A program made the translations under genes and the position numbers. A stretch of 63,937 bases of DNA, counting the filler. It is 8 parts of 8 records of this genome, joined end to end, with 100 filler letters (N's around TTAATTAATTAA, not from the genome) between each part and the next. Parts side by side here need not be neighbours in the genome. Positions count along the whole stretch, not along the records: positions 1 to 11,947 come from SRR31147125_23387; 7 more parts are not named here. One strand, given 5' to 3'. Numbering within the stretch: position 1 is the stretch's first letter; every line of letters begins with the position of its first letter. The notes beneath the pieces are model-generated. The model did not search any database and was not told the DNA's origin. It was given only the letters and a program-made list of their open reading frames with translations. Shown in pieces: positions 1 to 43,156 of this stretch.

Positions 1-36
1 AAAAAAGGTTCAGGCTGAGTTGCCTGAATCCTTTAA
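1..36 (-). terminator. Hairpin with adjacent A-tract, resembling an intrinsic terminator; paralogous to 3743-3780
   Basis: AAAAAAGGTTCAGGC-TGAGTT-GCCTGAATCCTTT stem-loop; the U-tract is on the minus strand. Confidence 0.55.
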
Positions 37-38
37 AA

Positions 39-67
39 TTGACTTTCATGAAAAAATTTCCTACATT
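39..67 (+). promoter_or_regulatory. sigma70-like promoter of the vapBC operon
   Basis: TTGACT (39-44), 17 nt, TACATT (62-67); palindrome TTTCATGAAA overlaps it and ATCG-N5-CGAT follows it, both possible operators. Confidence 0.5.
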
Positions 68-98
68 GATCTCATCGATATGCGATAAGGAGAATATT

Positions 99-305
99 AT
101 GCAGACAACAATATCAAGCAAATATCAAGTGGTCATCCCCAAACCGGTCAGAGAGCATCTAAACCTCAAGCCAAAGCAAAAGCTGACCGTCATCGAGAAG
201 GACCGCATGCTTATCCTTATTCCCCAGGTTTCTCTTGATGAACTGCGAGGTATCGCCAAAGGTGCCAGGATTGATGATTGCCGGGACAAAAAGGACCGCT
301 TCTGA
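99..305 (+). CDS. vapB: AbrB/MazE/SpoVT-family antitoxin
   Basis: TISSKYQVVIPKPVREHLNLKP swapped-hairpin motif; AAGGAG SD before ATG at 99; TGATG overlap with the toxin gene. Confidence 0.85.
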   Translation: MQTTISSKYQVVIPKPVREHLNLKPKQKLTVIEKDRMLILIPQVSLDELRGIAKGARIDDCRDKKDRF

Positions 306-694
306 TGGTTATTGTTGACTCTTGTGGTTGGCTGGAATGGTTTACGGATGGAGAACTGGCCGACAAGTATAAGAATTATCTTGCAAAACAGGATAAGCTC
401 CTGATACCTGCAATCATTGTCTACGAAGTCTTTAAGGTGCTTAAAAGAGAGGCTGGCGAAGAAAAGGCGTTGCTCGCCACCGGATACATGAAAAACTCTT
501 CGATAATCCCCCTTGATGAAACCCTCGCTATTGCTGCTGCCGATATCGCCCTGGCGGAAAAATTAGCCATGGCCGACGCCATCATTGTGGTTGTATCACG
601 TGCCCATAATTGTAGAATTATTTCTTCGGATGCAGACCTGAAAGGTCAGTCCAATGTGACGTACATTCCGAAAAAAAGCTGCGGACAGAGATAA
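305..694 (+). CDS. vapC: PIN-domain toxin
   Basis: IVDSCGWLE...YEV...MADAII...SSDAD acidic PIN residues; ATG at 305 is coupled to the antitoxin stop. Confidence 0.88.
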   Translation: MVIVDSCGWLEWFTDGELADKYKNYLAKQDKLLIPAIIVYEVFKVLKREAGEEKALLATGYMKNSSIIPLDETLAIAAADIALAEKLAMADAIIVVVSRAHNCRIISSDADLKGQSNVTYIPKKSCGQR

Positions 695-802
695 ACAGCT
701 ATTGGGCAGATAATATTGGTATTATGTACCTGGTTTTATAAATTGCAATCTTTCCATGCCTGACCCTTCGTCCCACTACACTCCGTCCCACACTGATTCG
801 GG

Positions 803-3583
803 CTAACTCTGGTTTTCCCTGTCTTTCAATATTTCGCTAACCGCTATGGCCAGCTCCTTTCGATCGACCGGTTTAAGGAAAAACCGGTTCACACCCAGCT
901 CTTTTTGTAACTCCTCGGTAATCATATCATTATAACCGGTACAAAGGATGGTGGGCAGGTCGGGCCGGAGCTTTTTTAATTCCGCAATCAGCTTTGCCCC
1001 TGTCATTTTCGGCATGGCCATATCGGAGATCACCATATCGAAGCTGTCCGGTTGTTCTTTGATTTTTTTCAAGGCTTCGAGGGGGTTTGTTTCAACCTCA
1101 ACCGTATATCCCAAACGGGTGAGCACCTCGCGGCCAACGCTTGCAAGCGCGATTTCGTCGTCCACCCACAATACTTTTCCGCTGCCCTTCTGCAGGACGG
1201 CATTCTTTTCTTCATGTTTCCCTTCCGTCAGTTCCACCGCCGGGAAAAATATTTCAAAAGTCGTGCAGCCCGGCTTGCTACTCATCCTTATCTTGCCACG
1301 GTGGCGGGTGACAATGCCGTGGACAATGGAAAGTCCGATGCCGGAGCCTTTGCCGGCCTCTTTGGTGGTAAAATAGGGCTCAAAAATCCGACTCATGTGT
1401 GCCGGATCGATTCCAGTTCCTGTGTCGGAAATAGACAGCATGAGATGATCCCCGGGGGGAAGGTCAAGCTCAGGGTCTGAAATCAGGGACGTTCGAGGGC
1501 GGTTTTCCAGGGTGACGCGTATCTCGCCTCCGTCGTTCGTCATGGCGTGGGCCGCATTGGAGCAAAGGTTGATGATGACCTGGTGAATCTGAGTTGCATC
1601 CGCAAGAATATTGAAAGGTTTTTCCGGGAAGCTCTGTTTAAACTCAATGGTGGAGGGGAGTGTCGATTGAAGGAGGCTGATCGCTTCTTTCACCACCGGA
1701 ACGATATTGATGGGGTCGTAGTTTTCTTCAACCCTGCGGCTGAAACTGAGAAGCTGTTGAACCACCCCCTTGGCCCGCAAACTGGCGGTTTTGATTTCTT
1801 TTACAAAAGCCTTGGTCGGATTCTCCTCTGCGAGGTCCTCACAGGCGAGCTCCGCATTGCCGATAATGATGCTGAGAATGTTGTTGAAATCATGAGCGAT
1901 TCCCCCAGAGAGCGTACCAAGAGCTTCCATTTTCTGAACGTGGCGGAGCTGTTCTTCGAGTTTTTTCTGGGCCGAAATATCCAGAAAACTTTCAATAATC
2001 AGGGCTTCCCCGCTGATATTAGCCATTTTACACGCTTTGAGGATGGGAACTCTGGTGCCGTCAACTTTAACTAGGGCACACTCACGTTGCGCGACTCCGA
2101 GGCCAAGACTGGTAATGGGACAGGGAGCATTTCCAGCGGTATCCAGAAACTCCTGGCAGGAGCGTCCGATAATTTTCTCTTCGGGGGCGCCAAGCATATG
2201 GAGGGCGGCCTGGTTGGCGTCTGTGATGGCATGGGTTTCAGGGTTAATAACTAGAATCCCCGGATTCACCGAATCGAGTATGCTCTTGAGACGTTGTTGG
2301 CTCTCCCGAAGGGCTTTGTCCGCCTGGTTGCGTTCTTCGATCATGTGGTTGGCGGACTTGGCAAGCCCTGAGAATTCAGAGAAATTCAGGGAATCTTCGT
2401 TGATTTTGGCCATCTTGGATGAAGCTTCTGCAAAGAAAGCGGTGAACGAATTGAAGTTCCTTTTGATTCTGTCCGCAACGATTTTGTTCAGGATAAGAAC
2501 CAACAGTGCGAGAGTCAGAAGGATCAGGCAGATTTTCAGAACATGCCCTTCGATCCGCTTGCGGAGTTTCTGCTGTTTTGCGGCAAGGACGGTTTCAATT
2601 TCATCGATATAGACTCCTGAGCCGATATACCACTCCCAGTCCTTGATCCCCGTGGCAAAACTGATTTTGCGTCCCCCTCTGTTTCCGTCAAACTCAGGGA
2701 GAACATATTCGACATATCCACCCCCTTTTTGAGCTGCCCGGATGAGCTCCTGAACGATTTTCAGGCCGTTGCTATCGGTAATGTCGTACACATTTTTGCC
2801 TTTATGGGGTCCGGTCAAGGAAGTTCCGTCCCATTGGGCGGCGAACAGATACCCGTCTTTTCCAAAGCGGATTTTTTCGACACGGTCAATCACTTCTTCC
2901 TGAATGTCTTTTTCCACATCGTCCAGGTATTCACCGGTGCCGATGACCCAGCCGAGGGGTTGGATAAGTTTGACAAAGGCGATTTTGGGGAAGAACCCCT
3001 TGGTGTCGGGCTTGGTCCAGGTGTATGTGTAAAATCCCTCCCCCTGTTTCTTGACCAGATTCAGCATGTCCGGGACCACGCGTTCACCCTTGGCTCCGGT
3101 CACCGAATGCATATTTTTGCCTTCCATTTCCGGTCGTACCGGAAAAAGGGTTTCAACTCCCTCCAGGTTGAAGGCAAAGAAATAACCGCGGCCATGGTTG
3201 TAGCGGATTGGACGCAGGGCGTCCTTGACGATTTGTTTGATTTCAGCCAGGGATTTATACTTGTGGTGCTGCTGAAAAAGATTCATGGCGATGGAGTGGG
3301 CCTCATAAACCCTTTCCCTGATCGATTCCTTCAAGCGAAGTTCGGTCTGGGATTTTTTATATTCAATATATTCGAGCGTGCGAAGGACTTCGTTCCTGAT
3401 CAGTTCTTTCTGGTTATTGATGTAATCCTGACGCAATTTTTCCGTCTCGAGTTTGAAAAGCTCAAGGTCCGATGAAATCCAGAAATAACCGGTGGCCAAT
3501 ATGGACAGGCTGCTGATAATCAGCAAGCTCAAGGATACAAATCGGGATATGCTGTTTTTCTTCGGGGATTTAGGTTTCATCAA
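803..3583 (-). CDS. Hybrid sensor histidine kinase (two Cache domains, PAS, HisKA, HATPase, REC)
   Basis: Two TM helices flank Cache-like repeats (GRGYFFAF, GKDGYLFA); GGIAHDFNNIL H-box; FEPYFTTK/GSGIGL; C-terminal receiver with DMAMP. Confidence 0.92.
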   Translation of the reverse strand: MMKPKSPKKNSISRFVSLSLLIISSLSILATGYFWISSDLELFKLETEKLRQDYINNQKELIRNEVLRTLEYIEYKKSQTELRLKESIRERVYEAHSIAMNLFQQHHKYKSLAEIKQIVKDALRPIRYNHGRGYFFAFNLEGVETLFPVRPEMEGKNMHSVTGAKGERVVPDMLNLVKKQGEGFYTYTWTKPDTKGFFPKIAFVKLIQPLGWVIGTGEYLDDVEKDIQEEVIDRVEKIRFGKDGYLFAAQWDGTSLTGPHKGKNVYDITDSNGLKIVQELIRAAQKGGGYVEYVLPEFDGNRGGRKISFATGIKDWEWYIGSGVYIDEIETVLAAKQQKLRKRIEGHVLKICLILLTLALLVLILNKIVADRIKRNFNSFTAFFAEASSKMAKINEDSLNFSEFSGLAKSANHMIEERNQADKALRESQQRLKSILDSVNPGILVINPETHAITDANQAALHMLGAPEEKIIGRSCQEFLDTAGNAPCPITSLGLGVAQRECALVKVDGTRVPILKACKMANISGEALIIESFLDISAQKKLEEQLRHVQKMEALGTLSGGIAHDFNNILSIIIGNAELACEDLAEENPTKAFVKEIKTASLRAKGVVQQLLSFSRRVEENYDPINIVPVVKEAISLLQSTLPSTIEFKQSFPEKPFNILADATQIHQVIINLCSNAAHAMTNDGGEIRVTLENRPRTSLISDPELDLPPGDHLMLSISDTGTGIDPAHMSRIFEPYFTTKEAGKGSGIGLSIVHGIVTRHRGKIRMSSKPGCTTFEIFFPAVELTEGKHEEKNAVLQKGSGKVLWVDDEIALASVGREVLTRLGYTVEVETNPLEALKKIKEQPDSFDMVISDMAMPKMTGAKLIAELKKLRPDLPTILCTGYNDMITEELQKELGVNRFFLKPVDRKELAIAVSEILKDRENQS

Positions 3584-3742
3584 TCGTTTTTACTTCGATG
3601 TGGGGAAAAAGTATTGGGTGTAAAAAGTTAAGCGGTTTTTCAAGACAAAACGTCATGTTATTGTCGGAAGTTGAAGTTTTGCAAATATTGTGCAATTTAA
3701 GATTATGCATAATGGTGGCAACTAAGCAACATGAGAAAGTAT

Positions 3743-3780
3743 AAAAAAAGGGTTCAGACTGGTTTGTCTGAACCCTTTAA
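3743..3780 (-). terminator. Intrinsic terminator downstream of the tRNA-Leu 3' end
   Basis: AAAGGGTTCAGAC-N6-GTCTGAACCCTTT stem with A7 tract, immediately 3' of CCA on the minus strand. Confidence 0.7.
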
Positions 3781-3784
3781 AGTT

Positions 3785-3840
3785 TGGTGCCGAAGGTCGG
3801 AGTCGAACCGACACACTCTAAGAGCAACGGTGTTTGAGTC
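3785..3840 (-). pseudogene. 3' half of tRNA-Leu(CAA), the displaced att site of an integrated element
   Basis: Minus strand reads CTCAAAC-ACCGT, long variable arm, GTCGGTTCGACTCCGAC T-arm, CTTCGGCACCA; the D-arm and 5' acceptor strand are absent. Confidence 0.85.
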
Positions 3841-3955
3841 CTGAAAAGACAAAAACCCACAAAAGATGACAACACAAAAAGGGTATTAATTATAAATAGA
3901 TAGGTGTTTTTGAGTGTTGGGGGTTGTTGCGAATTTTTGCTAAAATTTGTGGCTT

Positions 3956-3975
3956 AGTGTACCACCAGTGTACCA
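3956..3975. repeat. Tandem 9-bp direct repeat, candidate integrase arm-type binding sites
   Basis: AGTGTACCA at 3956-3964 and 3967-3975, about 115 bp inside the att core. Confidence 0.5.
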
Positions 3976-3983
3976 AGGAACTC

Positions 3984-4220
3984 TCAACCAATTTGGTCAA
4001 TAAGTGCCCTGATATCTTCGACTCGCCAAGCTGTAGTTCGAGGCCCAAGTTTAACTGGTTTGGGAAAGCGCCCTGTTTTCACACCATTCCACCAGGTGGA
4101 TCTTGAAACGGGAATTATGGGAGGTGTTGGCGGAATCCCTTTTTCTGGATCACCTTTAGTGCCGATGATCTGAGGAAGCCGAACAAACCCAGTTTCGGGA
4201 AGAGGGTAATATGTTTTCAT
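3984..4220 (-). CDS. AlpA-family transcriptional regulator/excisionase
   Basis: GFVRLPQIIG...PVSRSTWWNGVKTGRFPKPVKLGPRTTAWRVEDI, typical AlpA motif. Confidence 0.9.
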   Translation of the reverse strand: MKTYYPLPETGFVRLPQIIGTKGDPEKGIPPTPPIIPVSRSTWWNGVKTGRFPKPVKLGPRTTAWRVEDIRALIDQIG

Positions 4221-4439
4221 AACAGCATGCTTTTATAAGAAATTTATTGGAGGTTGTAGTTGATTCAGCAAAATTTTGCTTGTATGTCGAAACTTTGGGG
4301 AAAGAAAATAAGTTTCAAGTAGTCTTAAATAATGATATTTCCTAGAATTTCTGCAGTGTGGAATGTGCTAGGAACATGAGAGCGATATTCCGCCTTTTTT
4401 TGCATAGAAGCCCAATGCTAAGGTAATTATTTAAAAAGT

Positions 4440-5869
4440 CTATCTGCCAAGAACTTTTGGAATTTCAGTATTTATGACTATTACTTTTTCTGGGAGTTCA
4501 CCTGCTTCACGCTTTCTTCTGTAAGAATATTCTTCTAATTGCCCTACTGCAAGCCGCAATCTTTGTTGCAAACTTCTCCTATTGACAGTTTTTATTTCGA
4601 AAAGAGCCTCTGGTTTTGATTCAAATTTTACTAGCAAATCAACTGAATCTCTGTCTTCGTAAACTTGAGCTCCTTTATCCTTAAAAAAAACAGCAAGTTC
4701 TTTAACAATGGAATCATGCAAAAGTGTTTTTGCTTTTCTTTTTACATTACCTTGCTGAAAGTTTTGCCATGCTTGTTCAATGTCCGCTTGGTTAAAAGGA
4801 TATTCCTCTGACTTTATAGTGCTCGGTTGACCAGATTCCGGCTTGTTAGAAATTGATGATAAGTTTACAGTTGGTGCGTGCGAATCATAACCATAAAATT
4901 GGGTTTCAAACTCCTCTTCAAATCCAGAAACATAATTTATTTGCTTATATTCTTCTGTGATTTCATTTAATGGCATCATTAACTGCATATCGAACGGTAT
5001 TTCCCCAAAAAATGAGAACCAAGATTCTTTGTCAATTGGATCAAAGGTTTTTGGGAACCAAAACCTTTCTTCCTTCCCTCCGTCCTCACATATTGACTGG
5101 AGATATCTAGTTAAATTAAATGCATGTGGAGATAAAGCCAAACCATTTGCCGTGATGTAGAAGAGATCAGTTTTATCTAAAAATTTGAACCAATCTTGCA
5201 CATTTCGCCTGACATTTTTATTTCTAAGGGATTTTACGGCATCATTTTTTCTATCGTTCATTAATTCCGAATAAGCTAATTCCCAATCGCTATTCCTTTT
5301 CAAAGGAACGAGATGGTTTCCACATTCATCAACGGTGATGTATGCCACACCAGTTTTATTTTCATTTCCAAAAGAAGACGAAGGATAAGGAGCCCTGGTT
5401 TTATAAGGACGCCTTTTGCGCTCATAAGTTCTATTAAATTTGAGGGAACTGAAATATGATTACTTTCTAATTCTTGTTTTAGCCTAGATTGAATTGTTGC
5501 CTTTTGGCCGTTTGGATATTGGTAACGAAGCGCCTGTATTGTCATTAGCTCAGAGAAGCCAATATCGCTTGCTAAAAACATTTCTCCGACTGTTGTTAGC
5601 TTAAGTTTCCGATGCACCAGGGTTGAATATATGAGCCCGGCCTCTGCTAAAATTTGCTGATAGTCCCTCCATGCGTCGACTTCACCATTTCTTATGTTAT
5701 TAGTAAGCAAACCATTTTCAACAATCATTTGATTGATGATTTCCCCTGGCTTTGTCTTCCCTTGAGCAAGTGCGGCGCACGCTAATAAGCCATATAGGGT
5801 TTTAGGTTGAAACCCAATAGCATGTTGGGTGAAATACCAAGAATAGCCTGGAAAAGGTAGGCTGGTCAT
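4440..5869 (-). CDS. Putative restriction endonuclease, about 476 aa, split by one frameshift into ORFs 5300-5869 and 4440-5348
   Basis: N-terminal LRYQYPN motif (AlwI-like recognition region) and C-terminal D-x-EIK...RLAVGQLEEY PD-(D/E)xK domain; restoring one A near 5360 (ATG AAA AAT AAA ACT GGT GTG GCA) joins the frames; lies directly downstream of the MTase. Confidence 0.7.
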
Positions 5870-5870
5870 A

Positions 5871-6923
5871 TCAACTCCGTTTAAGCGCCAAAGAGATACT
5901 ATTTGCTAAAGCACGAGCCAATAATGGAGGTACAGCGTTTCCAACTTGTCGATATTGTGCAGTTGGACCACCGTAAAAAATCCACCAATCAGGAAAAGAT
6001 TGAAGTCGAGCTGCTTCTCTGACAGTTATGTGTCGATGCTCGAATGGATGAATAAACGGCCTTCCGCCGCCATTGCCAGAGCCAACAAGAACAGTGCCCG
6101 ATGGTTTTTCTGGATGAATACGATCAGTGTGATCCACCTTGTCTCGAGAACCAGGAACAATCTTGCTATATCTCGTAGAAACTCTCTCGGAGTGTATCCT
6201 CAAGACGTGATTTGGTAGCCCTTGGACATTTTCCAATGCCATCCAAGAAGGCCTAAATTTTTTTAAACCTAATAGAATATTCTCTTCTTCAGAATATTGG
6301 GGACTTGGCCACTTGAATTCAACTTTGTCACGAAAACCTAATAAAAAAACCCTCTCTCTAAGCTGGGGGGCGCCAAACATTGCAGAATTTATTTTGGTCC
6401 AACGCAAATCAAACCCAGTCTCTTCCTTAAAGTATTCTATTAAATGAGCCCAATCCTCTCCTTTATTCACAGTTAAAATACCTGGTACATTTTCAAATAA
6501 AAATAAAGCTGGGTTAGTTTCACGGATAAAATGCGCATACTCATAAACAAGCTTTCCTCTAGGATCGTTTATTGAACTACGATTTCCTAAAATACTAAAC
6601 GTTTGGCAAGGTGGCCCACCAATAACAACATCAAATGAACCAACCTTGTCTCTTACATAAGCCCCATTAAGGTTGGTCATATCATGAGGTTCAACTAAAT
6701 GGTTAGCTAAGTTTTTTTTGATTGTTTCACAATATGTTTCTTCTAAATCCGTTGAAAAAACAGGTTCAAATCCTGCGAGTGCAAAACCCAAATCTAGCCC
6801 ACCACCTCCTGAGTAAAGTGAAACGTATTTTAAACTATTTGTTTTTTGAGGTAGATTAAGTTTGCTAAGTTCGGCCAAATAATCGTTTTTCATATTCCCA
6901 TTATGTAATTTGAATGCTTCCAT
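5871..6923 (-). CDS. dcm: DNA (cytosine-5)-methyltransferase
   Basis: Motif I LYSGGGGLDLG, IV GGPPCQ, VI ENVPG, VIII PQLRER, IX/X REAARLQSFPD...QVGNAVPP. Confidence 0.95.
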   Translation of the reverse strand: MEAFKLHNGNMKNDYLAELSKLNLPQKTNSLKYVSLYSGGGGLDLGFALAGFEPVFSTDLEETYCETIKKNLANHLVEPHDMTNLNGAYVRDKVGSFDVVIGGPPCQTFSILGNRSSINDPRGKLVYEYAHFIRETNPALFLFENVPGILTVNKGEDWAHLIEYFKEETGFDLRWTKINSAMFGAPQLRERVFLLGFRDKVEFKWPSPQYSEEENILLGLKKFRPSWMALENVQGLPNHVLRIHSERVSTRYSKIVPGSRDKVDHTDRIHPEKPSGTVLVGSGNGGGRPFIHPFEHRHITVREAARLQSFPDWWIFYGGPTAQYRQVGNAVPPLLARALANSISLALKRS

Positions 6924-6941
6924 TTTAATAAATTTTGGTTT

Positions 6942-7346
6942 TTACCCTTCAAGGAAATTTTTTAATTTTTCATATAAGTTATCGCTGTTTATTTCACACT
7001 CCCAAATAACCAGCACTTTCCAACCTTCACTTTCAAGCAAACTGATGTTTTGGATATCATTCTCCTTATTTTTGTACAATTTGGGTTTCCAGTAATCTAA
7101 ATTTGATTTTGGTAAGCGGGCTTTAGCACAATTGTCATGTAAATGCCAAAAACACCCATGAATAAAAATAATTTTTTTTGATTTGCGAAAAGTGAGATCT
7201 GGGTGGCCGGGAAGATCTTTACAGTGTAACCGGTAACGGTACCCCATTGAGTAAACTAAGCGCCGTACCGTCATTTCAGGCTTTGAACTCTTCGACCTGA
7301 TTTTTGACATCCTCTCGCTTCGTTGTTGAGGGGATAAAATATCCAT
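6942..7346 (-). CDS. vsr: Very short patch repair endonuclease
   Basis: MDILSPQQRSERMSKIRSK-SKPE, LPGHPD, FIHGCFWH, VIWECE; probable start is ATG at 7346. Confidence 0.95.
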   Translation of the reverse strand: MDILSPQQRSERMSKIRSKSSKPEMTVRRLVYSMGYRYRLHCKDLPGHPDLTFRKSKKIIFIHGCFWHLHDNCAKARLPKSNLDYWKPKLYKNKENDIQNISLLESEGWKVLVIWECEINSDNLYEKLKNFLEG

Positions 7347-7605
7347 ATTCTTTTTCCCCGTTAAAGTACCTGGGGAGTTGAAAATAAATCTTCCTTTATT
7401 CTCAACCAACATTAACCTTTTTCCCGCTATTTGACAATATCCACTAACGTGTGATTATCCAAATGGGGAAATTACCCCCTAAAAAAGAAACTGGTCTAAA
7501 ATAAGCAAAAAAAGGTAGAAAAGATATCAAGGAAATTTATATTTTTCTTTTTTTGTTACCAAGGATCCTCGGTCTTAATCATTCTATTGAATCAAGGATT
7601 TTGCC

Positions 7606-8508
7606 ATGGAAAACTTCCAAGAATGGGCAAACGGTCGCAACCCATTTTTAGCTGTTTGGTGCCACATTGCTGCAACAAATTTCGGACCGACATATGGCCT
7701 TTTAAAGGTTGTCCAAAACGATAGTATTTTTTCTAAAGAATTCCCCCTTCCTCCTCTAAAAACCTGGTTAAAGCTGTATAGAAGGCATCGGCCGGTCCTT
7801 AATAGTTTTTGGGGCAAATTTATTGACCCTACAGGTTTTTGGAATTTCTCTAGCCAAGATATATGGCAATTAGAATGGAGTCCTGATTTCGATTCAGAAA
7901 AGGAAGTCATCTCAAAGGAAGCCGAACAATATTTTAAGGAAATTTTTAACCAGGATGATGGAGAAAAGCTTCTTGAAAATTATCTGGACGCTTTAGAATT
8001 TAATCCCGACGAAACGGAAAAACAAAAATATGGAGGGTATTTCCTTGAAATTTTTCAATCCCCAGAATTCTTATTTCTTGCCAGAATTTACTACCCATGT
8101 TGGCTCTTGTACAAAGAAACCCCTGCAAGCTTACTCCGGAAAGCCCGTCAAGGAAATATTCAAAGCTTAGAAAACCTATTGCGGCTTGATTCTTCAACTA
8201 TTTTTGACCCAAAAATCTCTCAATTGGTTCATAGGTTTCGCTATGAAAAGAAAAGCCACTTTGAAAAAATAATCTCCTGCCTTTTGAGCCCACCTAAAAC
8301 AAAGATTTCTCGTCAAAAAGTTAAGGCTTTTTGGGCAGGATTTATTTTGATCGTTTCTTTTGCTTTTGGAGAAAGATTAACCGAGCCAGAAATCCGTGGC
8401 TTGTTTGATGCCATTGCCAAAGATGAAAACCGAGGCGAAATTGATACTGACCTTCCAGAAAGCCCTCATGCCTTTTATGTGGCCATAAGACGCGAAATTG
8501 ATTTTTGA
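7606..8508 (+). CDS. Hypothetical protein of the element core (300 aa)
   Basis: Long ORF co-oriented with and just upstream of rep; no recognisable catalytic motif. Confidence 0.7.
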   Translation: MENFQEWANGRNPFLAVWCHIAATNFGPTYGLLKVVQNDSIFSKEFPLPPLKTWLKLYRRHRPVLNSFWGKFIDPTGFWNFSSQDIWQLEWSPDFDSEKEVISKEAEQYFKEIFNQDDGEKLLENYLDALEFNPDETEKQKYGGYFLEIFQSPEFLFLARIYYPCWLLYKETPASLLRKARQGNIQSLENLLRLDSSTIFDPKISQLVHRFRYEKKSHFEKIISCLLSPPKTKISRQKVKAFWAGFILIVSFAFGERLTEPEIRGLFDAIAKDENRGEIDTDLPESPHAFYVAIRREIDF

Positions 8509-8586
8509 AATTCTGCTAGCTAGTCTCACAAAAAATAATTTTCTTTTGTGAGGGTAGGCTGTTCCTACTCATGAGATTCTTCCTGC

Positions 8587-9978
8587 ATGAAACAGCAGGA
8601 AGCGACAACTCAAAACCAAAACCAACCCCACAACGAAAAAGGTCCTCCTTTTCCTCCTGCTGATTCTTCGCGCATAATTAACCCCCCGTGTAGTAACACG
8701 GGGGTAGGTTCTGCATCCAATACAAGTGAAAAAGAAGGTTTTTCCTTTAAAGATCAAATACTTATTGATTGGCTGGAATTTACTCTTTTTATAAATTTAA
8801 TTCCTGAAAATATTCCGGCCTTGTTGGGTATTCCTGATGTGTTGCTTGAGGAGTGTCCACGTGGTTTGAACGGTTATCGAAAACAGTTAGTGGCGGGATC
8901 GATTCGGATTCTGTTTGATGGTAATGAGGATATGGGAACTCACGTCATCATTCCAGGTGAAGCCCTCAAAGATTTTAAAATCAATCCAATTCGGATTATT
9001 CAAATCCTGGATCATATTAATTCGGATCGTTCTGCATATGCTTTCAAGTCGTATGAGCGGACTAAAAAAGCCGTATTAAGAGAAATTACAATTGAGCCCA
9101 AAGGGGACCAGGCGGAACGGTCGAAAATTACCCGGATTGATGTAGCCATCGATGATTTCAAAGGAAAGCTCAAGCTAAAGAAATTAAAAAGTGCGATTCG
9201 CCGGGGAGCGTGTGTCTCCCGATGCCGGAACTGGGGAAGTATTGAAGAGGGTAAAATCATTGACGGTTCACTTCAGGGAGAAACTTTGTATGTCGGAAGG
9301 CGTGAAAGTAATTTTATGATCCGCTTTTATGACAAACTGAAGGAGCGAATAAAAGCCGGGTTTCCTCCTGAAAACCTCCCCGAAATTTGGAACCGCTGCG
9401 AGATGGAAATTAAACACGAATCGGCAATAAAACTCGCGAAATTATTAGCTGGGGAAAATGGCCCTGAAATACTTGGGAAATATGCACGGGGAATTTTAAA
9501 TAACTACTTCTCCGTCCGGGTTAAATCCAATGATCAAACCCGCTCCCGCTGGAAAAAAGCTGACTGGTGGGTTGAATATGTTGACACTTTTGAAAAAGTA
9601 AAAATTGGGAGGGATATTTTAAAAAAAACGTTACAACAACAAAGGCAATGGTTTGATAAACAAATGGGCACGGTACTGGCCGGATTAAAGATAGCCTTTG
9701 GATCGCAAGAACTTCAACGTATTGAGGATTCAGGAATGCGTCGCCTTCACCAAGGAAGGTATCGGAAAAAACGCCAGGAAATTTCCAAAATCCGGCAGGA
9801 ACGTTTGCAAAAAGAACAGAAATTAAATGAAAAAACTGAAAAGCGATTTTCACAAGATTTAGATTGCCGCTCAATTTGGGACAAACGAACAGGCGAATTT
9901 GTTGCAAAAGTTCCAACCGAAAATGCGGAAAAAGCCGAGCGTGAACTTTTGTATGATCCTGAATATATTGCAGATTAA
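8587..9978 (+). CDS. Rep_trans-family rolling-circle replication initiator / MOBT (NicK-like) relaxase
   Basis: IDWLEFT, ITRIDVAIDD, GETLYVG (catalytic Tyr), IRFYDK and WNRCEMEIK motifs. Confidence 0.9.
   Translation: MKQQEATTQNQNQPHNEKGPPFPPADSSRIINPPCSNTGVGSASNTSEKEGFSFKDQILIDWLEFTLFINLIPENIPALLGIPDVLLEECPRGLNGYRKQLVAGSIRILFDGNEDMGTHVIIPGEALKDFKINPIRIIQILDHINSDRSAYAFKSYERTKKAVLREITIEPKGDQAERSKITRIDVAIDDFKGKLKLKKLKSAIRRGACVSRCRNWGSIEEGKIIDGSLQGETLYVGRRESNFMIRFYDKLKERIKAGFPPENLPEIWNRCEMEIKHESAIKLAKLLAGENGPEILGKYARGILNNYFSVRVKSNDQTRSRWKKADWWVEYVDTFEKVKIGRDILKKTLQQQRQWFDKQMGTVLAGLKIAFGSQELQRIEDSGMRRLHQGRYRKKRQEISKIRQERLQKEQKLNEKTEKRFSQDLDCRSIWDKRTGEFVAKVPTENAEKAERELLYDPEYIAD
8683..8704 (+). 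promoter_or_regulatory. Putative nick site (dso/oriT) hairpin inside the rep gene
   Basis: CCCCCGTGT-AGTA-ACACGGGGG perfect 9-bp stem, encoding PPCSNTG. Confidence 0.7.
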
Positions 9979-10068
9979 ATACCTAAAAATAACCAAAATT
10001 ATTGCAGCGGATTTTTAGAAAAATTTATCCCATTTTGTCATTAAAAATAAAAAAATCGGAGGAAAAAA

Positions 10069-10287
10069 ATGGAAAAAGATAACTTTAAAACTGAAGAAAA
10101 AACCCGTCTTATTCCTGTCACTAATTGGAATGAATACCACTGTTGGCCCCCTATTGGAGGCTTAAGACATCTGATTTTTTACGAAAAAACTAACGGATTT
10201 TGCCAATGTGTAAAACGGATCGGAAGACGAGTTCTAATTGATGAAAAAAAGTTTTTCGAATGGGTAGATAACCAAAAAGGGAATTAG
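10069..10287 (+). CDS. Small excisionase-like DNA-binding protein
   Basis: GGAGG SD; C-terminal VKRIGRRVLIDEKKFFEWVD winged-helix motif typical of Xis-like proteins. Confidence 0.7.
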   Translation: MEKDNFKTEEKTRLIPVTNWNEYHCWPPIGGLRHLIFYEKTNGFCQCVKRIGRRVLIDEKKFFEWVDNQKGN

Positions 10288-10449
10288 AAATGCACTCTTC
10301 TGTTTGAAGGAAGTTCAATTTTTTGCGGTTTTAATTGCTGGAAATATCCCATTTATTCTAAGGGTATGCAGGGGGATTTTGAGATGATTTAGGAAAGTTT
10401 TTTCTATTAAGATTTAGATGAAATATAAGGGATGAGTTAAGTTAGTAAA

Positions 10450-11409
10450 CTAGGAAAATTGAAAATCATATTTTAAGAAAAGAGATTTGGCAAAATAAAT
10501 AATGGCTTCCTCAATTAGAAAATAAGCTAAAGCTTTGGGAAATAATGTAAACGCAACTCGTCTAACAAAAATAATCGACCATCTGTATCTTTTATAAAGT
10601 AAATAAATATTTTTCGCTAATTCATGACTTGATTTAACAGTAGAAGCAATGTCAATAAGTATAAACCAAGAATTAACTTTGTTAAAATATTTTTTGTCAA
10701 AATTTGTATGTTTTAAATTTTTCATTTTAATATTTTTTAAATTGATTGAAATTATTTCTTTTTCTGTAATATGATATCTAATTGGGAATTCTTTTTCTCT
10801 ATGGAAAAATGAAATTGAGTAATCATTTTTTTTGAATCCTGTTTCTAATAAAAATTTTTCAAAATTAAATTTAAAAACTCCTTTTTTGTTTGTCTTTGCT
10901 GTTATGAAAAAATTATTATTTTTTGATTCAATTACAATATTGATTATTCTGTCAATTTCAGGTAATTCTTGAGTTGAGATAATTTCTTTTGCAATTTTGG
11001 TCGATAAAATATCGAACTTTCCATCTTTGAAAATATTGCTCTCAATTTTAGGATTGCTATAACTTCTTATTTCACGATCAATTGAGTCAAATAAAAGGAG
11101 AGGGTTGAATGGATAGTAAAGCATGTAGAATGGATTATCAATTATGTTAAGCAAAGGTTCTGTGGCTTTTTTAAAGTCAATTTCTCTATTTCTTAAAAAT
11201 TCTTCTTCAATTTTTCTGACTTTTTTGTGGTCCACTCTCATTGAACAGCCTTCAAACATTGCCCCTTGATTCTTTTTGCTAACATTAAAAATAAATTCGG
11301 ATGGGAGTGCTTCATATGATGTTACTATTCGTCGGTGAGGGCCAGTTGTGCAACCCGATACCAAAGCTAAAAAGATTAAAAAGTCTCTCCTGGAACAACC
11401 GTCCCTCAT
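10450..11409 (-). CDS. Hypothetical AT-rich lipoprotein with a twin-arginine-like signal
   Basis: SRRDFL followed by a hydrophobic stretch and lipobox VSGC; GAGGTGAGG SD; hydrophobic C-terminus. Confidence 0.6.
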   Translation of the reverse strand: MRDGCSRRDFLIFLALVSGCTTGPHRRIVTSYEALPSEFIFNVSKKNQGAMFEGCSMRVDHKKVRKIEEEFLRNREIDFKKATEPLLNIIDNPFYMLYYPFNPLLLFDSIDREIRSYSNPKIESNIFKDGKFDILSTKIAKEIISTQELPEIDRIINIVIESKNNNFFITAKTNKKGVFKFNFEKFLLETGFKKNDYSISFFHREKEFPIRYHITEKEIISINLKNIKMKNLKHTNFDKKYFNKVNSWFILIDIASTVKSSHELAKNIYLLYKRYRWSIIFVRRVAFTLFPKALAYFLIEEAIIYFAKSLFLKYDFQFS

Positions 11410-11737
11410 CTAATCCCTCACCTCAATCATATTTTCTTAAAATGGATTAGAGCCAATGGCTGTGACAAATCCTGAAAGGCGAAACTCATAAAAGAGCCAA
11501 CATTTTGTAGAGCCTTGTAAAGTCCAATTTAGCTGAAAAGTTTTTAAAATCAACTTGGTTGACAAAGCAAGTCAAATGGTCCGCCCTCTGGAAGGTTTTT
11601 TCTGTTCAGTTAAATCGAAGTGGTACTAATGGCCAGATTTTTTCAAGCTGACGTAATTGAAACGATATTTAGCTGGAGATATTTGAAATGTTACCTTGGT
11701 CTGCCCAGGCTATCTGCTTATAGGGGATTTAAATGTT

Positions 11738-11947
11738 TTATTCGCTAAAAATTTTTGCATTCATTCGTTCAACAACACTTGCAGTGTGAGCTTCTGAAAG
11801 ATGGGCATAGCGTTTTACCATTTGCAATGTTTTATGGCCTAAAACCTCCGCGATTTCTGCAAGGGTGGCCCCATTCATGGCAAGGTAAGATGCCGCTGTA
11901 TGGCGCAAGTCATGAAAGCGGAAATCCTCTATTTTGGCTTTTTCAAG
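11738..11947 (-). CDS. int: Tyrosine recombinase/integrase, C-terminal 69 aa (5' end lost at contig break; not in the ORF track)
   Basis: Minus-strand translation LEKAKIEDFRFHDLRHTAASYLAMNGATLAEIAEVLGHKTLQMVKRYAHLSEAH contains HxxR, LGH and the catalytic Tyr. Confidence 0.93.
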   Translation of the reverse strand, partial: LEKAKIEDFRFHDLRHTAASYLAMNGATLAEIAEVLGHKTLQMVKRYAHLSEAHTASVVERMNAKIFSE

Positions 11948-37113: not shown

Positions 37114-37258
37114 GATTTTTGGTGAGTAGTATTGAAAACTAAGAAAAANNNNNNNNNNNNNNNNNNNNNNNNNNNNNNNNNNNNNNNNNNNNTTAATTAA
37201 TTAANNNNNNNNNNNNNNNNNNNNNNNNNNNNNNNNNNNNNNNNNNNNGGAGGTTGCT

Positions 37259-38272
37259 ATCCAAATTATTATCAATTCTCCAGGTTCGATTATTAAGCAG
37301 AAAGACGAAATTTTTCGGTTTCAGAATAAGGAAAACAGGCTTGATCTGTCTCCCATGAAAATCGAATCCATCATCATCTCAAATAAGGCCATGGTCACCA
37401 CCCAGGCAATTAATCTTGCCCTGGATCACAATATAGACCTGATATTCCTTGACCCTTACGGCTTTCCCACAGGCCGGGTATGGTTTTCAAAAATGGGCTC
37501 CACCACCCTGATCCGTCGCAGACAGCTTGATGCCGCAATCGGCGATCTGGGCCTTTCCCTTGCCCTTGACATGGTCAGGCAGAAAATAAGCCACCAGCTT
37601 GAGTTTTTAAAAAAACTCAAATACGCAAGGCCTGACAGGCACAGCCTGTTTGACAAACCCCTTGAAACTATTTCGGGGTCATTAAAAGGACTTGACCGGG
37701 AATTCGACGGCCTTGATGAATCCCGCTCAAGCATCATGGGAATCGAAGGCACGGCCGGCCGGGCGTATTTTTCCTGCATATCAAAGCTCATGCCCGAAGC
37801 CTACCGGTTTAAGGCCCGGAGCAAACGCCCGGCCAAAGATCCGTTTAATGCCGTGCTCAATTATTGTTACGGTGTGCTCTACTCCCGGGTTGAAAAATGC
37901 TGCATCATTGCAGGATTGGATCCTTTTATAGGGTTCATGCACACGGATAACTATAATAAAAAATCTATGGTCTTTGATTTGATCGAACCCTTCAGGGTCT
38001 TTGCAGAGCAGTGCGCCGTCTATTTTTTCACAGGAAAAAAGGCAAAACCGGCCTATTTTGAACAAAATGAACATTCCTGCACCCTCAACGACAAGGGCAA
38101 ACCCCTGGTCATTGAATCATTGAACAGACACCTGGAAGAAACGGTCCGGTACAGAAAACGGAATGTCAAAAGAAAGCAGATCATCAGCCATGAAGCCCAC
38201 AGGCTGGCCAATATCCTTATTGATGAAAGCGAATTTAAAAGGCCTGAATGGCTGGAGATAAAGGAGTTCTGA
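37259..38272 (+). CDS. cas1: CRISPR-associated endonuclease Cas1
   Basis: MGIEGTAGRAYF, DPFNAVLNYCYG, GLDPFIGFMH, FDLIEPFR; the frame extends 32 codons upstream of the ORF-track start. Confidence 0.93.
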   Translation: MQIIINSPGSIIKQKDEIFRFQNKENRLDLSPMKIESIIISNKAMVTTQAINLALDHNIDLIFLDPYGFPTGRVWFSKMGSTTLIRRRQLDAAIGDLGLSLALDMVRQKISHQLEFLKKLKYARPDRHSLFDKPLETISGSLKGLDREFDGLDESRSSIMGIEGTAGRAYFSCISKLMPEAYRFKARSKRPAKDPFNAVLNYCYGVLYSRVEKCCIIAGLDPFIGFMHTDNYNKKSMVFDLIEPFRVFAEQCAVYFFTGKKAKPAYFEQNEHSCTLNDKGKPLVIESLNRHLEETVRYRKRNVKRKQIISHEAHRLANILIDESEFKRPEWLEIKEF

Positions 38273-38273
38273 C

Positions 38274-38573
38274 ATGGCTGACATCCTTGCGTGGATCATG
38301 TACGACATCGCCTCCAACAAGATCAGGAATCGGGTGGCCAAAAAATGCAAGAAATACGGCCTGACCCGGGTGCAGAAAAGCATATTTTTAGGCCGCCTCG
38401 ACTACAACCGTTTTGACGAACTGGCGGAGTTCTGCCTTGAAGAGATCGAAGAGGATACGGACAGTGTCTATCTCTTCCCCTTTTGCCAGGACGATTTTCG
38501 AAAAATCAACGTCCTGGGCCAGGGCTTTGATAAGAAACTGGTGAACGATGAAATTCTGTCCAAGTTTTTTTAA
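38274..38573 (+). CDS. cas2: CRISPR-associated endonuclease Cas2
   Basis: IMYDIASNKIRNRVAKKCKKYGLTRVQKSIF, DSVYLFP. Confidence 0.95.
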   Translation: MADILAWIMYDIASNKIRNRVAKKCKKYGLTRVQKSIFLGRLDYNRFDELAEFCLEEIEEDTDSVYLFPFCQDDFRKINVLGQGFDKKLVNDEILSKFF

Positions 38574-38596
38574 TCCATAACTCAACTCAATGAAGT

Positions 38597-39262
38597 ATGA
38601 AAAAAGCCACACTCACTTTTAACAACATTCGGCTGAAGCCATCCCAGACACACAAGCTGAGGGGATATGTTGGAAATGTTTTCAAACAACATGACCTGAT
38701 TCACAACCATGACCCGGTTACCGGGAGGCATATCTATAGGTACCCCCTGATTCAATTTAAGGTTATTGATAAAATTCCGTGCATTATCGCCTTGACCGAG
38801 AGCGCAGTGAGGATTTTTACGGATATTTTTATGACGATGGATGAAATCGTTATTGAAAATAGAGTTATTCGGGTCCATGAAAAAGACTTAAAAGTTGAAA
38901 CCGTTGATTTTGGTTATTCTGAAGAGGTTTTTTTATATGAACTGATAACACCATGGCTGGCGCTAAATCAAAAAAACCATTGCGCATACAAACAGGCGAA
39001 GACACAAAGGTCAAAAGAAAATTTGTTAATAAAGATCCTCACGGGCAATATTTTGTCTATGTCAAAGGATCTCGGGCTTTTTCTTGACAAGGAGCAAAAG
39101 ATATTCTCACGGGTGCAGCTAAAAGAGGCGACCGCTAATCTGAAGGGGCAAAAAATGCTCGGTTTTTCTGGAATGTTTAAAACCAATTTTTTAATACCGG
39201 ATTATGCGGGAATAGGTAAGGCCGTATCCAGAGGCTACGGATCCGTTAGACGATTATTGTAG
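38597..39262 (+). CDS. cas6: CRISPR-associated endoribonuclease Cas6 (Cas6b-like)
   Basis: KLRGY, HNH...YRYPLIQFK, TPWLALNQ, G-rich loop GIGKAVSRGYG. Confidence 0.88.
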   Translation: MKKATLTFNNIRLKPSQTHKLRGYVGNVFKQHDLIHNHDPVTGRHIYRYPLIQFKVIDKIPCIIALTESAVRIFTDIFMTMDEIVIENRVIRVHEKDLKVETVDFGYSEEVFLYELITPWLALNQKNHCAYKQAKTQRSKENLLIKILTGNILSMSKDLGLFLDKEQKIFSRVQLKEATANLKGQKMLGFSGMFKTNFLIPDYAGIGKAVSRGYGSVRRLL

Positions 39263-39287
39263 ATATAAATATTTGCCTTGAAAGGGT

Positions 39288-41297: not shown

Positions 41298-41308
41298 GGA
41301 GATAAAAT

Positions 41309-42163
41309 ATGACCATTGCAAACAACAGCCAATTGTTATTCATCTACGATGCTAAAATGAGCAATCCCAACGGCGATATGGACAATGAAAATCGGCCGCG
41401 GATGGACTATGACACCAATACCAACCTGGTCAGTGATGTCCGGTTGAAAAGATATCTTCGGGATTATTTTGAAAAAGCATGTGATTTGGAGATCTTTGTT
41501 ACGGAAAACGCTCAGGACGCAAAGGACAGGGGCAAACAATTAAAAAATAATGAAATGACCCATACGGACCTTATTGATGTGAGACTCTTTGGTGCCGTAT
41601 TTGCCAAAGAAGGTGGAAACGATCATTTAACAGGGCCTTTACAGTTCAACTGGGGATACTCTCTGAATCCTGTTGAGATTAATGACAGCTCTACAATAAC
41701 CTCAAGCTTCGCCAAAGGAGAAGGAATTGGGAAGGATTTCAGGGTTAAATATTCCGTCATAGCCTTTGACGGAGGAATCAATGCCTATACTGCAAAATAT
41801 ACCCTACTCACTGATGACGATATTCAATTACTGGATTCAGCTATGATAAATGCCATCCCATTTTGCCGGACACGGTCAAAAACCGGACAGACACCAAGAT
41901 TTTACCTCCGGGTTGAATCCGATGGAAATAAAAACATCTTGAAAGATTTAAGGGAATTCATCTCACTAAACTACAATGTTGATGACGAATTTAATGCAAG
42001 AAGCATCGATGACTTTACCTTGGATATAAAGAAACTTATCCCCTATCTGGCTGGGCAAAAAATCAGCCTGATCAGATATTGGAAAGACAATGAGCTTGAA
42101 ATTGACGGCTGGCAGGACCTCGTAGATCAATTTGACGGTAAAATGTTTCTGGTTGAATCTTAA
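41309..42163 (+). CDS. cas7: Type I-B Cas7/Csh2
   Basis: NPNGDMDNENRPRMD, VSDVRLKRYLRDY, DVRLFG, TGPLQF, TRSK. Confidence 0.93.
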   Translation: MTIANNSQLLFIYDAKMSNPNGDMDNENRPRMDYDTNTNLVSDVRLKRYLRDYFEKACDLEIFVTENAQDAKDRGKQLKNNEMTHTDLIDVRLFGAVFAKEGGNDHLTGPLQFNWGYSLNPVEINDSSTITSSFAKGEGIGKDFRVKYSVIAFDGGINAYTAKYTLLTDDDIQLLDSAMINAIPFCRTRSKTGQTPRFYLRVESDGNKNILKDLREFISLNYNVDDEFNARSIDDFTLDIKKLIPYLAGQKISLIRYWKDNELEIDGWQDLVDQFDGKMFLVES

Positions 42164-42181
42164 ATCCGGCAAGGAGTATGT

Positions 42182-43021
42182 ATGATGTTGGACATTGACA
42201 GATTACTATGTTTTACCCTGAAAGGGAAATTTGCCCATTTTAGGAAATTTTATACCAATTCATCATCCCTGTCATACTTGATACCGCCCAGAACCGTTAT
42301 TGCAGGCCTGATTGCCTCCGTCCTGAGAATTCCAAGAGATCGTTATTATGAGGAACTTGGCCCGGAAAAAATCGGCCTGTCTGTGGCCATCCCCCGTAAT
42401 TGCCCTCTGACCCGTCAGATGCAGTCCCTCAACTATCTGCACGACAGATATTTTAATCTAATAGCAAAGGGGAACGGAACCGTTCAGCATTCCCAGTGCA
42501 AGCTTGAACTTCTTACCGGCCAGAACGGTTCTCCGGTAAAATATAGAATCTGGGTGGGGTTTCAAAATACAAATGAACTCATGAATACCTTTGAAGCATG
42601 TTTATCCGATAATAACCTGGGCTATGGTATATATCTTGGGCAACGCCAGTTTATCGGCCATGTTGAGAATCTTAAAAGTTACGACTCTGATCAATTCGAG
42701 TTTTGTGAATCAGCCAAGGTGCTCGATTCCGTCTGTATAATGGAAAATATCATGGAGTTAATTCCTGGAGATAATGCGGATATCCAAAAGGAAAGAATGG
42801 TATCGGATTTTAAACATCACGAAAATGGCCGGGAAATGACAGGAACTCAATCCGTTGCTTTTGAAAAAAACGGCAACCGCCTGACCGGCCTGTTTAAGGA
42901 CTGCATAAAGGTGGCTGATCAATTCATTTCTTTTATTAAGCTGGGCTGCTATGGTCTCGAAAAAAGAATCAAGTCAGCAGCAAAAGAAAATCGGTATTTG
43001 AAATTTAAAAATATGCATTAA
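42182..43021 (+). CDS. cas5: Type I-B Cas5
   Basis: GKFAHFRKFYTNSSSLSYLIPPRTVIAGLIA, YLGQRQF. Confidence 0.92.
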   Translation: MMLDIDRLLCFTLKGKFAHFRKFYTNSSSLSYLIPPRTVIAGLIASVLRIPRDRYYEELGPEKIGLSVAIPRNCPLTRQMQSLNYLHDRYFNLIAKGNGTVQHSQCKLELLTGQNGSPVKYRIWVGFQNTNELMNTFEACLSDNNLGYGIYLGQRQFIGHVENLKSYDSDQFEFCESAKVLDSVCIMENIMELIPGDNADIQKERMVSDFKHHENGREMTGTQSVAFEKNGNRLTGLFKDCIKVADQFISFIKLGCYGLEKRIKSAAKENRYLKFKNMH

Positions 43022-43044
43022 AATGAGGAATGAAATTTGTCCCA

Positions 43045-43156
43045 TGAGCCTTGAGTTGCTTTCCCACCCGGCAGAAGGAAAGGTCAAAGAAAAGAAACTG
43101 ACGAATCATCTGTACAATGTTGCAAAAAAAATAGAATACGAGATCCGTGAAAAAAA
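43045..43156 (+). CDS. cas3: Probable Cas3 HD-domain N-terminus, truncated
   Basis: LLSHP...LTNHLYNVA directly after cas5. Confidence 0.65.

Follow-up and report, generated by a model that had tools for sequence, protein, structure and literature searches.

The DNA analysed here, referred to as the window, is a 63,937-base stretch in which N spacers link eight contigs. In the first of these (1-11947), the right two thirds hold a compact element that begins at a tRNA-Leu(CAA) fragment and combines a tyrosine integrase, a Rep_trans-type replication initiator and a restriction-modification (R-M) cassette. The GC content of the element is 0.22-0.43, against 0.48-0.53 in the left flank. The gene set given in a preliminary description of this DNA was found at the right end of contig 1, with the restriction endonuclease (REase) as a single gene being the exception. 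The features are as follows, with lengths of open reading frame (ORF) products in amino acids (aa).

3747..3778, minus strand: terminator-like hairpin, a 13-pair stem followed by a T run, directly after CCA and just outside the element
3785..3838, minus strand: 54-nt attachment (att) repeat, a tRNA-Leu(CAA) 3′ fragment; the displaced copy at the distal element end
3984..4220, minus strand: alpA-family winged-helix regulator, excisionase-like, 78 aa (PF05930, E 1.3e-6, 28.7 bits, cut-off 21)
4325..5869, minus strand: putative type II REase from a distant AlwI-family branch; low coordinate computed from the length of the 515-aa ORF
5871..6923, minus strand: C5-methyltransferase (C5-MTase), 350 aa (PF00145, 3.4e-66; TIGR00675, 9.8e-60; PADLOC MTase_II, 1.5e-86)
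6942..7412, minus strand: Vsr very-short-patch repair endonuclease, 156 aa (PF03852, 1e-27; TIGR00632, 138.7 bits, cut-off 97.85)
7606..8508, plus strand: 300-aa all-helical protein, the signature gene of the family, directly upstream of rep
8587..9978, plus strand: Rep_trans rolling-circle initiator, RepSTK1-like, 463 aa (PF02486, 9.3e-45, 153.1 bits, cut-off 29.6)
8683..8704, plus strand: putative double-strand origin and nick site, a perfect 9-bp GC-rich hairpin within the first 120 nt of rep
10069..10287, plus strand: 72-aa winged-helix protein, candidate recombination directionality factor (Xis-like)
10450..11409, minus strand: 319-aa orphan ORF, lipoprotein-like, 22-35% GC; cargo
11738..11947, minus strand: tyrosine integrase, C-terminal 69 residues, truncated by the contig end (PF00589, 1e-13)

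The left border of the element is the 3′ part of a tRNA gene. Read on the minus strand from 3838 to 3785, the repeat comprises the anticodon loop CTCAAAC, a long variable arm, the T arm (GTCGG TTCGACT CCGAC), the acceptor 3′ strand, an A and CCA, with 3785-3814 covering the T arm, the acceptor 3′ strand and ACCA. Its last 30 nt match the annotated 3′ end of an E. coli tRNA-Leu adjoining an integrase at 27 of 30 positions, and seven of the eight rows listed by BLAST for the tRNA fragment fell on annotated tRNA-Leu, though their E values of 0.1-0.5 are weak alone. ARAGORN reported zero tRNAs in the whole window, Rfam gave no tRNA match between 3600 and 4000 at E ≤ 10, and the 54-mer was not found elsewhere in the window. 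The terminator-like hairpin next to this fragment probably served as the terminator of the native tRNA-Leu gene; beyond it, the left flank carries a hybrid histidine kinase gene.

The opposite border was located in a public sequencing run, here called X1, the only one with this DNA; it contains 98% of the sampled words of 3601-11947. No contig of a second run, X2, aligned to this DNA. A 9151-nt X1 contig (depth 14) consists of window positions 3809-11947, 978 new nt and then 3785-3814 again, and the X1 contig of the host flank (depth 13.7) stops at 3814. The 54 nt of 3785-3838 form a separate node (depth 23.7). The host flank and the final part of the 9151-nt contig both lead into this node, and it leads out into the element and into a 1965-nt contig; the latter (depth 14.6) departs from 3809-3838 in the opposite direction. 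This graph implies a 54-nt direct repeat flanking a 9091-nt unique segment (9145 nt with one repeat, or about 9.15 kb), and the two repeats are identical because both collapse into one node. The integrated form exists, since the window contig joins the host flank to the element.

These borders also limit what the element can encode. The 978 unseen nt and the 210 nt in the window can encode no more than about 396 aa, which matches the size of a tyrosine integrase; beyond the contig break there is thus room only for the rest of this gene, and no conjugation or virion genes fit there. Together these data support the integration at tRNA-Leu proposed in the preliminary description, the X1 graph showing the repeat, anticodon loop (CAA) through CCA, at either end of the element. 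Conjugation or virion genes past the break had been named beforehand as one of the findings that would overturn that description; they are excluded, as only 978 nt remain. The compactness of the element and its lack of transfer or virion genes likewise hold, on the full gene inventory together with this limit. The element thus has its own recombinase (a PF00589 C-terminus) and att repeats (54 nt at both ends), and, by gene inventory and size limit, no mating-pore genes of its own, as in an integrative mobilizable element (IME).

The genes nearest the two ends belong to a putative recombination module. Two of the three profiles proposed as checks, PF00589 for the integrase and PF05930 for the alpA product, matched there (1e-13, and 28.7 bits against 21). 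The integrase C-terminus also matches the integrase family phrog_1 (7.8e-20), and the alpA product matches PHROG 2790 and 66, annotated as 'excisionase and transcriptional regulator'. The 72-aa protein had no family match at E ≤ 1. Its AF2 model (pLDDT 75.5) has the order beta-helix-helix-beta-beta-helix, and five of its six best VIA matches are excisionases or excisionase-like DNA-binding proteins by entry title or recall. The Z values (2kvv, 6.3; GIsul2, 5.4; P2 4lhf, which we take to be Cox-like, 5.3; RdfS, 5.2; Tn916 Xis, 5.1) are modest, yet usual for a 60-residue domain; Foldseek returned nothing for this model at E ≤ 0.001. Only two of the related loci described below have a homologue of the 72-aa protein, 77% identical in L008 and 81% identical in L010, and the L010 integrase is 84% identical over the 68 comparable C-terminal residues of the window integrase. 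Co-inheritance of the 72-aa gene with the integrase suggests a role in recombination directionality, in keeping with the modelled fold.

PF02486 covers residues 180-379 of Rep and PF18106 (Rol_Rep_N) residues 57-129 (3.8e-5), and a profile of Rep and 23 homologues matched RepSTK1 (4cij) at 5.5e-89 over 263 positions, with RepDE and RepDN reaching only about 1e-6. Ten columns are invariant in the 24 sequences (D61, R183, D185, T233, Y235, G237, R246, Y248, K250 and E272). They correspond to the active-site residues set out in the available sections of PMC4797284, namely the R-x-Y-x-K strand, the T/Y/G strand and the acidic metal ligands. As R246-F-Y248-D-K250 aligns with the RFYEK of RepSTK1 (R177, K181), Y248 in the motif RFYDK is the predicted catalytic tyrosine. 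Rep also has a charged C-terminal extension of about 80 aa.

The preliminary description had assigned this protein to Rep_trans, with PF02486 homology set as the test, and had also labelled it MOBT. The first assignment is upheld at 153 bits against a cut-off of 29.6. The second is not: the NCBIfam MobT model gave a score of 63 bits where its cut-off is 600, and PF18106 occupies the N-terminus in place of a helix-turn-helix (HTH) domain, Pfam finding no HTH family in Rep at E ≤ 0.01. MOBT relaxases are described, in the excerpts available of PMC9371924 and PMC11389934, as an N-terminal HTH fused to a Rep_trans domain. No TcpA coupling protein or type IV secretion system (T4SS) domain was found among the ten ORF products scanned, and the unseen part is only 978 nt. 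Given the low MobT score and the missing HTH domain, Rep is a plasmid- or phage-type initiator rather than a MOBT protein as those excerpts define it. A scan of genome contigs with Rep yielded three distant relatives (28-32% identity); scans of viral contigs with Rep alone and with Rep alignment A7 gave no matches.

The hairpin at 8683..8704 lies inside the rep coding region, which is also where the pT181 origin lies. It reads CCCCCGTGT AGTA ACACGGGGG, with GTAA at the loop, and its stability corresponds to z values of -2.8 and -3.5. A like hairpin occurs at the same gene position in three distant Rep homologues: L001, a 7.4-kb replicon with a Zot-domain gene; L002, a Tn916-like integrative and conjugative element (ICE) with TcpC, TcpE and a VirB4-like gene; and L003, a 6.1-kb Haploplasma contig, whose hairpin has a compensatory G:C to A:T pair relative to the window. 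We defined a hairpin of this kind as a perfect stem of at least 7 bp with at least 4 G/C and a loop containing [CG]TA[AT], lying no further than 450 nt into the gene. Such a hairpin was present in 12 of the 13 rep or rep-like genes, with 0.13 expected from 300 mononucleotide shuffles of each; the rep-like gene of L005 has a stem of only 5 bp at this position. In the published nic site, according to the available text of PMC9371924, the loop of a GC-rich hairpin carries CT'AA, and the form of the window hairpin matches this architecture; nicking itself is putative. The proposal of a Rep_trans protein with an intragenic nick hairpin thus gains support from the PF02486 match, the RepSTK1 profile match and the recurrence of the hairpin in these 12 genes.

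About 20 Rep homologues (P0002-P0022) share an N-terminal peptide, P-x-x-[SG]-N-[TR]-G-x-x-N-T, located before Rol_Rep_N. Wherever DNA was available, this peptide coincides with the DNA hairpin. The peptide probably reflects a constraint on the DNA and may be a protein-level imprint of an overlapping origin.

Directly upstream of rep lies the 300-aa protein, which has no match in Pfam, PHROGs, NCBIfam or PADLOC. A word-indexed search found 41 homologues, and a profile search found 1085 representative clusters (clusters at 50% identity) at E ≤ 1e-3, of which 558 lay at ≤ 1e-30. The AF2 model is all-helical with a pLDDT of 85.1, and fold searches gave no convincing match, the best Foldseek E values being 0.27 in the PDB and 0.36 in BFVD. 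The best VIA match, a designed helical repeat at Z 6.8, was rejected as within the noise for helical proteins. The protein is unmatched in 72,556 plasmid and 50,697 phage records, and in IMG/VR it occurs on one contig only, beside host genes. The two homologues that carry a name come from Deltaproteobacteria metagenome-assembled genomes (MAGs), and it is from these two names only that a deltaproteobacterial host is suggested. We propose that the 300-aa protein may be an accessory factor of the initiator.

The setting of this protein in other genomes was examined in locus scans that used the smaller alignment A2, A1 being too diverse. These gave 11 related loci (ten from the first scan and one from the second), ten of which have at least 450 nt downstream of the 300-aa homologue. 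In nine of these ten a rep-like gene of 400-490 aa lies directly downstream, L012 being the exception. The rep-like gene is invisible to Pfam, but its alignment against that of Rep_trans by hhalign (probability 96%, E 4.9e-9, 226 columns) places R-x-D, RIYDK and RVE in register. BLAST detected no similarity between the window Rep and the rep-like gene of the relatives, whereas the neighbouring 300-aa proteins are 25-48% identical. This implies that the initiator was either replaced or changed to a far greater extent than the 300-aa protein beside it.

The related loci also differ in their recombinases and cargo. Recombinases lie downstream in L005, L010, L013 and L015: two tyrosine integrases in L005, a large serine recombinase in L013, and in L015 a tyrosine integrase that abuts a tRNA-Arg(ACG), followed by tadA-like and purA genes. 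L010 carries a retron-type RT-Toprim gene (709 bits) between the 72-aa homologue and the integrase, that is, in the slot held by the lipoprotein gene in the window, and in L008 the 72-aa homologue is followed by a different lipoprotein-like ORF. Upstream of the core, L005 has two ThsB-like TIR genes and L013 has PDC-M30 A+B and a helicase. A tblastn search of the related loci found no alpA homologue. The preliminary description had proposed a hyp-rep-xis core and asked whether cargo varies at its slot. In L010 the cargo at the lipoprotein slot does differ. As for the core, the 300-aa protein and Rep stand, accompanied by variable and mostly defence cargo, but the Xis-like gene is present in only two related loci, and the Rep of the relatives belongs to a divergent Rep_trans-like clade unseen by Pfam.

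Two further observations concern these loci. The L013 genes occupy 879-5773, with PDC-M30 A+B, a candidate defence pair, consisting of a DUF5131 protein and a GMT-like winged HTH protein, together with a 1009-aa ResIII helicase, all upstream of the 300-aa/rep core. In L010, 8341-8853 hold only the C-terminal part of a Mg-chelatase/ComM-type gene to the left of the element, and an HTH gene of opposite orientation comes before it; the truncated gene suggests that another insertion disrupts comM.

The cargo of the window element lies on both sides of the core. On one side are the REase, C5-MTase and Vsr genes, and the nearest solved structure to the C5-MTase is M.HaeIII (1.2e-38). On the other side, the 319-aa ORF starts with SRRDFL...LVSGC, read by eye as a Tat-like signal and lipobox with no tool prediction; it matched nothing in Pfam, PHROGs, NCBIfam or PADLOC and gave no usable Atlas match.

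These observations allow us to propose what the element is. Its anatomy, borders, family and hairpin conservation are observed, and they are best explained by an integrative element of about 9.15 kb at tRNA-Leu(CAA) that combines an int/Xis/AlpA module, a module of 300-aa protein, Rep and hairpin, and defence cargo, and that depends on a helper; we consider this account probable. In this model the tyrosine integrase would insert the element at the anticodon loop of tRNA-Leu(CAA), duplicating 54 nt up to CCA. The recombination module would comprise int, the winged-helix Xis-like protein and the AlpA-type regulator, with Int and either the Xis-like protein or AlpA excising a circle. The replication module would comprise the 300-aa protein, the RepSTK1-like initiator and its cognate GC-rich hairpin origin with a GT'AA loop. 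Rep would nick the hairpin loop through Tyr248 and so start rolling-circle replication, yielding single-stranded copies and retaining the excised form. The AlwI-like REase, C5-MTase and Vsr on one side and the lipoprotein on the other would be carried as cargo. Genes for a coupling protein, a T4SS, a capsid or a Zot-type protein are absent from the element, so movement between cells would need a helper. Either a phage or a conjugative element might fill this role, the latter by accepting the Rep-ssDNA complex as happens with IMEs of the Rep_trans type; by analogy, the conjugative route known for such IMEs and a filamentous-phage route suggested by the kinship of Rep both fit. We infer excision, nicking, replication, helper-dependent transfer and anti-phage defence from the gene content and its homologies.

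Several observations weigh against this account. The contig graph alone fits both the integrated form and a circle plus an empty site, and the 5′ half of the tRNA and the N-terminus of the integrase are predicted only. X1 is probably the source sample of the window, which would make it an independent assembly of the same sample. The hairpin loop reads GTAA in the window and several relatives, not the canonical CTAA, and no single-strand origin was seen as a structured fold in the intergenic regions (z -1.5 to +0.9). A relaxase role of Rep is unsupported, because the MobT criteria failed. The closest relatives of Rep come from contigs of 5-9 kb and from short records of plasmid or phage-like type, a setting that fits capture from a phage or plasmid and is compatible with a decayed replicon. 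Finally, the REase in the window letters is two overlapping ORFs, 5300-5869 (189 aa) and 4440-5348 (302 aa).

This last point bears on the possibility of decay: the element could be what is left of an integrated rolling-circle plasmid or a defective small prophage, having lost excision and replication and simply kept its R-M and Vsr genes. In the window the REase lacks about 40 C-terminal residues relative to its homologues, and tblastn places the parts in different frames with stops near the end. Four T runs, at 4394, 4454, 5358 and 7547, are one T shorter in the window than in the X1 contig; the last of these differences is intergenic, and with the extra T at the other three the gene becomes one ORF of 515 aa, collinear with homologues of 506 aa (57-61% identity). 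Errors in the window consensus are thus the most likely cause of the breaks. Homopolymer errors may be present elsewhere in the window assembly as well, so other apparent frameshifts there are suspect. Among 39 REase homologues, 36 are 445-516 aa long and one is named an AlwI family REase; the N-terminal part resembles RE_AlwI clusters, PF09491 reaches its cut-off in two of the five homologues tested, and a PDB sequence search with both pieces found no match. The identity of the enzyme is thus putative, resting on distant AlwI-family links only. The organism itself probably has a complete R-M-Vsr cassette: the complete cassette of the preliminary description is borne out in the X1 contig, with a 515-aa REase and intact MTase and Vsr, but not in the window letters, where the REase is frame-broken.

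Decay would agree with the frame breaks at two places in the window letters of the REase, with the missing single-strand origin and with a depth of about 14 that equals that of the chromosome flanks and gives no sign of extra copies. However, the breaks vanish in the X1 contig through three single-T differences, all other genes are intact ORFs, Rep retains every active-site column and the hairpin, both 54-nt repeats are identical and the core is conserved across 1085 clusters. A remnant is therefore unlikely.

Quite unlikely, too, is a satellite of a filamentous, single-stranded DNA phage, with the phage-type Rep and origin as its only phage functions and its single-stranded DNA packaged and exported by a helper inovirus, as in RS1 and TLC-phi of Vibrio cholerae, satellites that use such a helper. 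Such a satellite would account for the Rep relatives on 5-9 kb contigs, to which one source gives the name 'phage replication initiation protein', for those in 5.7-8.1 kb uncultured virus records, for the match to PHROG 453 (1.5e-19) and for the Zot-domain gene that accompanies the homologous hairpin in L001. In the element itself, no packaging signal, coat gene or Zot gene is recognisable; PF05707 and other virion families, as expected in an inovirus or plectrovirus prophage, are absent among the ten ORF products, although small coat genes may escape sequence search. The 300-aa protein is missing from the phage records, with its one IMG/VR contig placing it beside host genes, and the hairpin type is not phage-specific, being present in the Tn916-like ICE L002.

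Least probable is a tailed-phage satellite resembling P4 or a phage-inducible chromosomal island (PICI), with AlpA as a switch at helper infection, Rep_trans in place of a primase-replicase and an unrecognised packaging redirector: the presence of both int and alpA, a length near 9 kb, insertion in a tRNA gene and a cargo of defence genes, all typical of P4-like and PICI defence hotspots, do fit, as does a Rep_trans homologue (25% identity) in the 12.2-kb Streptococcus satellite phage Javan276, but none of the genes can be recognised as terS, a primase or a capsid redirector (three ORFs belong to no known family), alpA and int stand at opposite ends, and no alpA homologue turned up in the related loci.

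A helper-dependent integrative element remains the account we prefer. We advance, tentatively and with more doubt than conviction, that the 300-aa protein, a Rep_trans-like initiator and the intragenic hairpin form the core of a large, undescribed family of minimal rolling-circle elements in Gram-negative environmental hosts, as the two MAG names suggest. Such elements would exchange their recombinases (tyrosine or serine) and specialise in transporting defence systems, namely R-M/Vsr, retron, Thoeris-like TIR and PDC-M30. In that case the 300-aa protein would be an accessory factor of a new kind for Rep_trans enzymes; it might, for instance, bring in a host helicase in the manner of HelP in ICEBs1, or link the Rep-ssDNA complex with the export machine of a helper. 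A limited search of partly available literature found no description of Rep_trans integrative elements outside Firmicutes or of the 300-aa family. Defence genes, or candidates for such genes, are present in every one of the few relatives whose context could be read, and so the family may be an unrecognised vehicle that spreads immune systems among environmental bacteria. The 300-aa family may accordingly be a practical marker for finding new immune systems, and the intragenic hairpin offers a directly testable candidate nick site.

Elsewhere in the window, 37249-43156, on a separate contig, hold a partial type I-B-like cas operon with cas6b, cas7, a TM1802/cas8b-like gene and a cas1 that the start of the contig truncates; a further ORF of 285 aa there has no Pfam match. 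The GC contents of the eight joined contigs range from 0.33 to 0.49. Given this spread, the window need not represent one organism, and the bin may mix organisms.

A small integrative element with a Rep_trans protein is a kind of element already known, and such elements have been studied almost only in Firmicutes, as far as the available portions of PMC9371924 and PMC5704250 cover them. The closest parallels are the streptococcal Rep_trans/MobT IMEs, such as IME_Sag2603_tRNAlys and IME_SsuBM407_tRNAleu (Guedon et al. 2017, PMC5704250). From the sections available, these elements, like the one described here, are small, use a tyrosine recombinase, insert at the 3′ end of tRNA or other genes, have the Rep_trans-type enzyme as their only DNA-processing enzyme, lack mating-pore genes and sometimes carry R-M cargo. 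In contrast to them, the window element has a RepSTK1-like initiator with a PF18106 N-terminus and no HTH, which fails the MobT model; it lacks TcpA and has the 300-aa partner gene, which is unknown in those IMEs. They belong to Firmicutes, whereas the named homologues of the window element come from Deltaproteobacteria MAGs.

With plasmids of the pT181/pSTK1 type (RepC, RepD, RepSTK1; Carr et al. 2016, PMC4797284, as excerpted) the element shares the Rep fold family, the active-site residues and a nick site in a GC-rich hairpin loop. It differs from these plasmids in being chromosomal with int and att, in its GTAA loop, in the 300-aa partner and in the C-terminal extension of Rep, and no ICRIII-like repeat was identified in it. 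In the available part of Laroussi et al. 2022 (PMC9371924), the nic site in the oriT of ICEBs1, Tn916 and ICESt3 has the architecture seen here: GC-rich inverted repeats of 7 bp enclose a loop of some 12 nt that contains CT'AA. The hairpins of L008, L010 and L015 are like these nic sites, with arms of 7 nt (8 in L015) on either side of 12 nt, and the Tn916-like L002 has its hairpin at the same gene position as the window. Unlike those ICEs, the window element has no T4SS, coupling protein or HelP (DUF961), and its Rep lacks the HTH that defines MOBT.

P4-like hotspots and PICIs resemble the window element in being small, integrated at tRNA genes and equipped with int, alpA and defence cargo that varies. 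The window replication module differs from theirs in being of the Rep_trans rolling-circle type, not a primase-helicase, and no packaging-hijack genes are recognisable in it. Against these known systems, what appears to be new is the partner protein with its unknown fold, the Pfam-invisible Rep_trans-like clade, and the interchangeable recombinases and defence cargo, apparently outside Firmicutes by the two MAG names. The same enzymology and nick-site architecture would thus recur in a compact element whose named relatives are Deltaproteobacteria MAGs.

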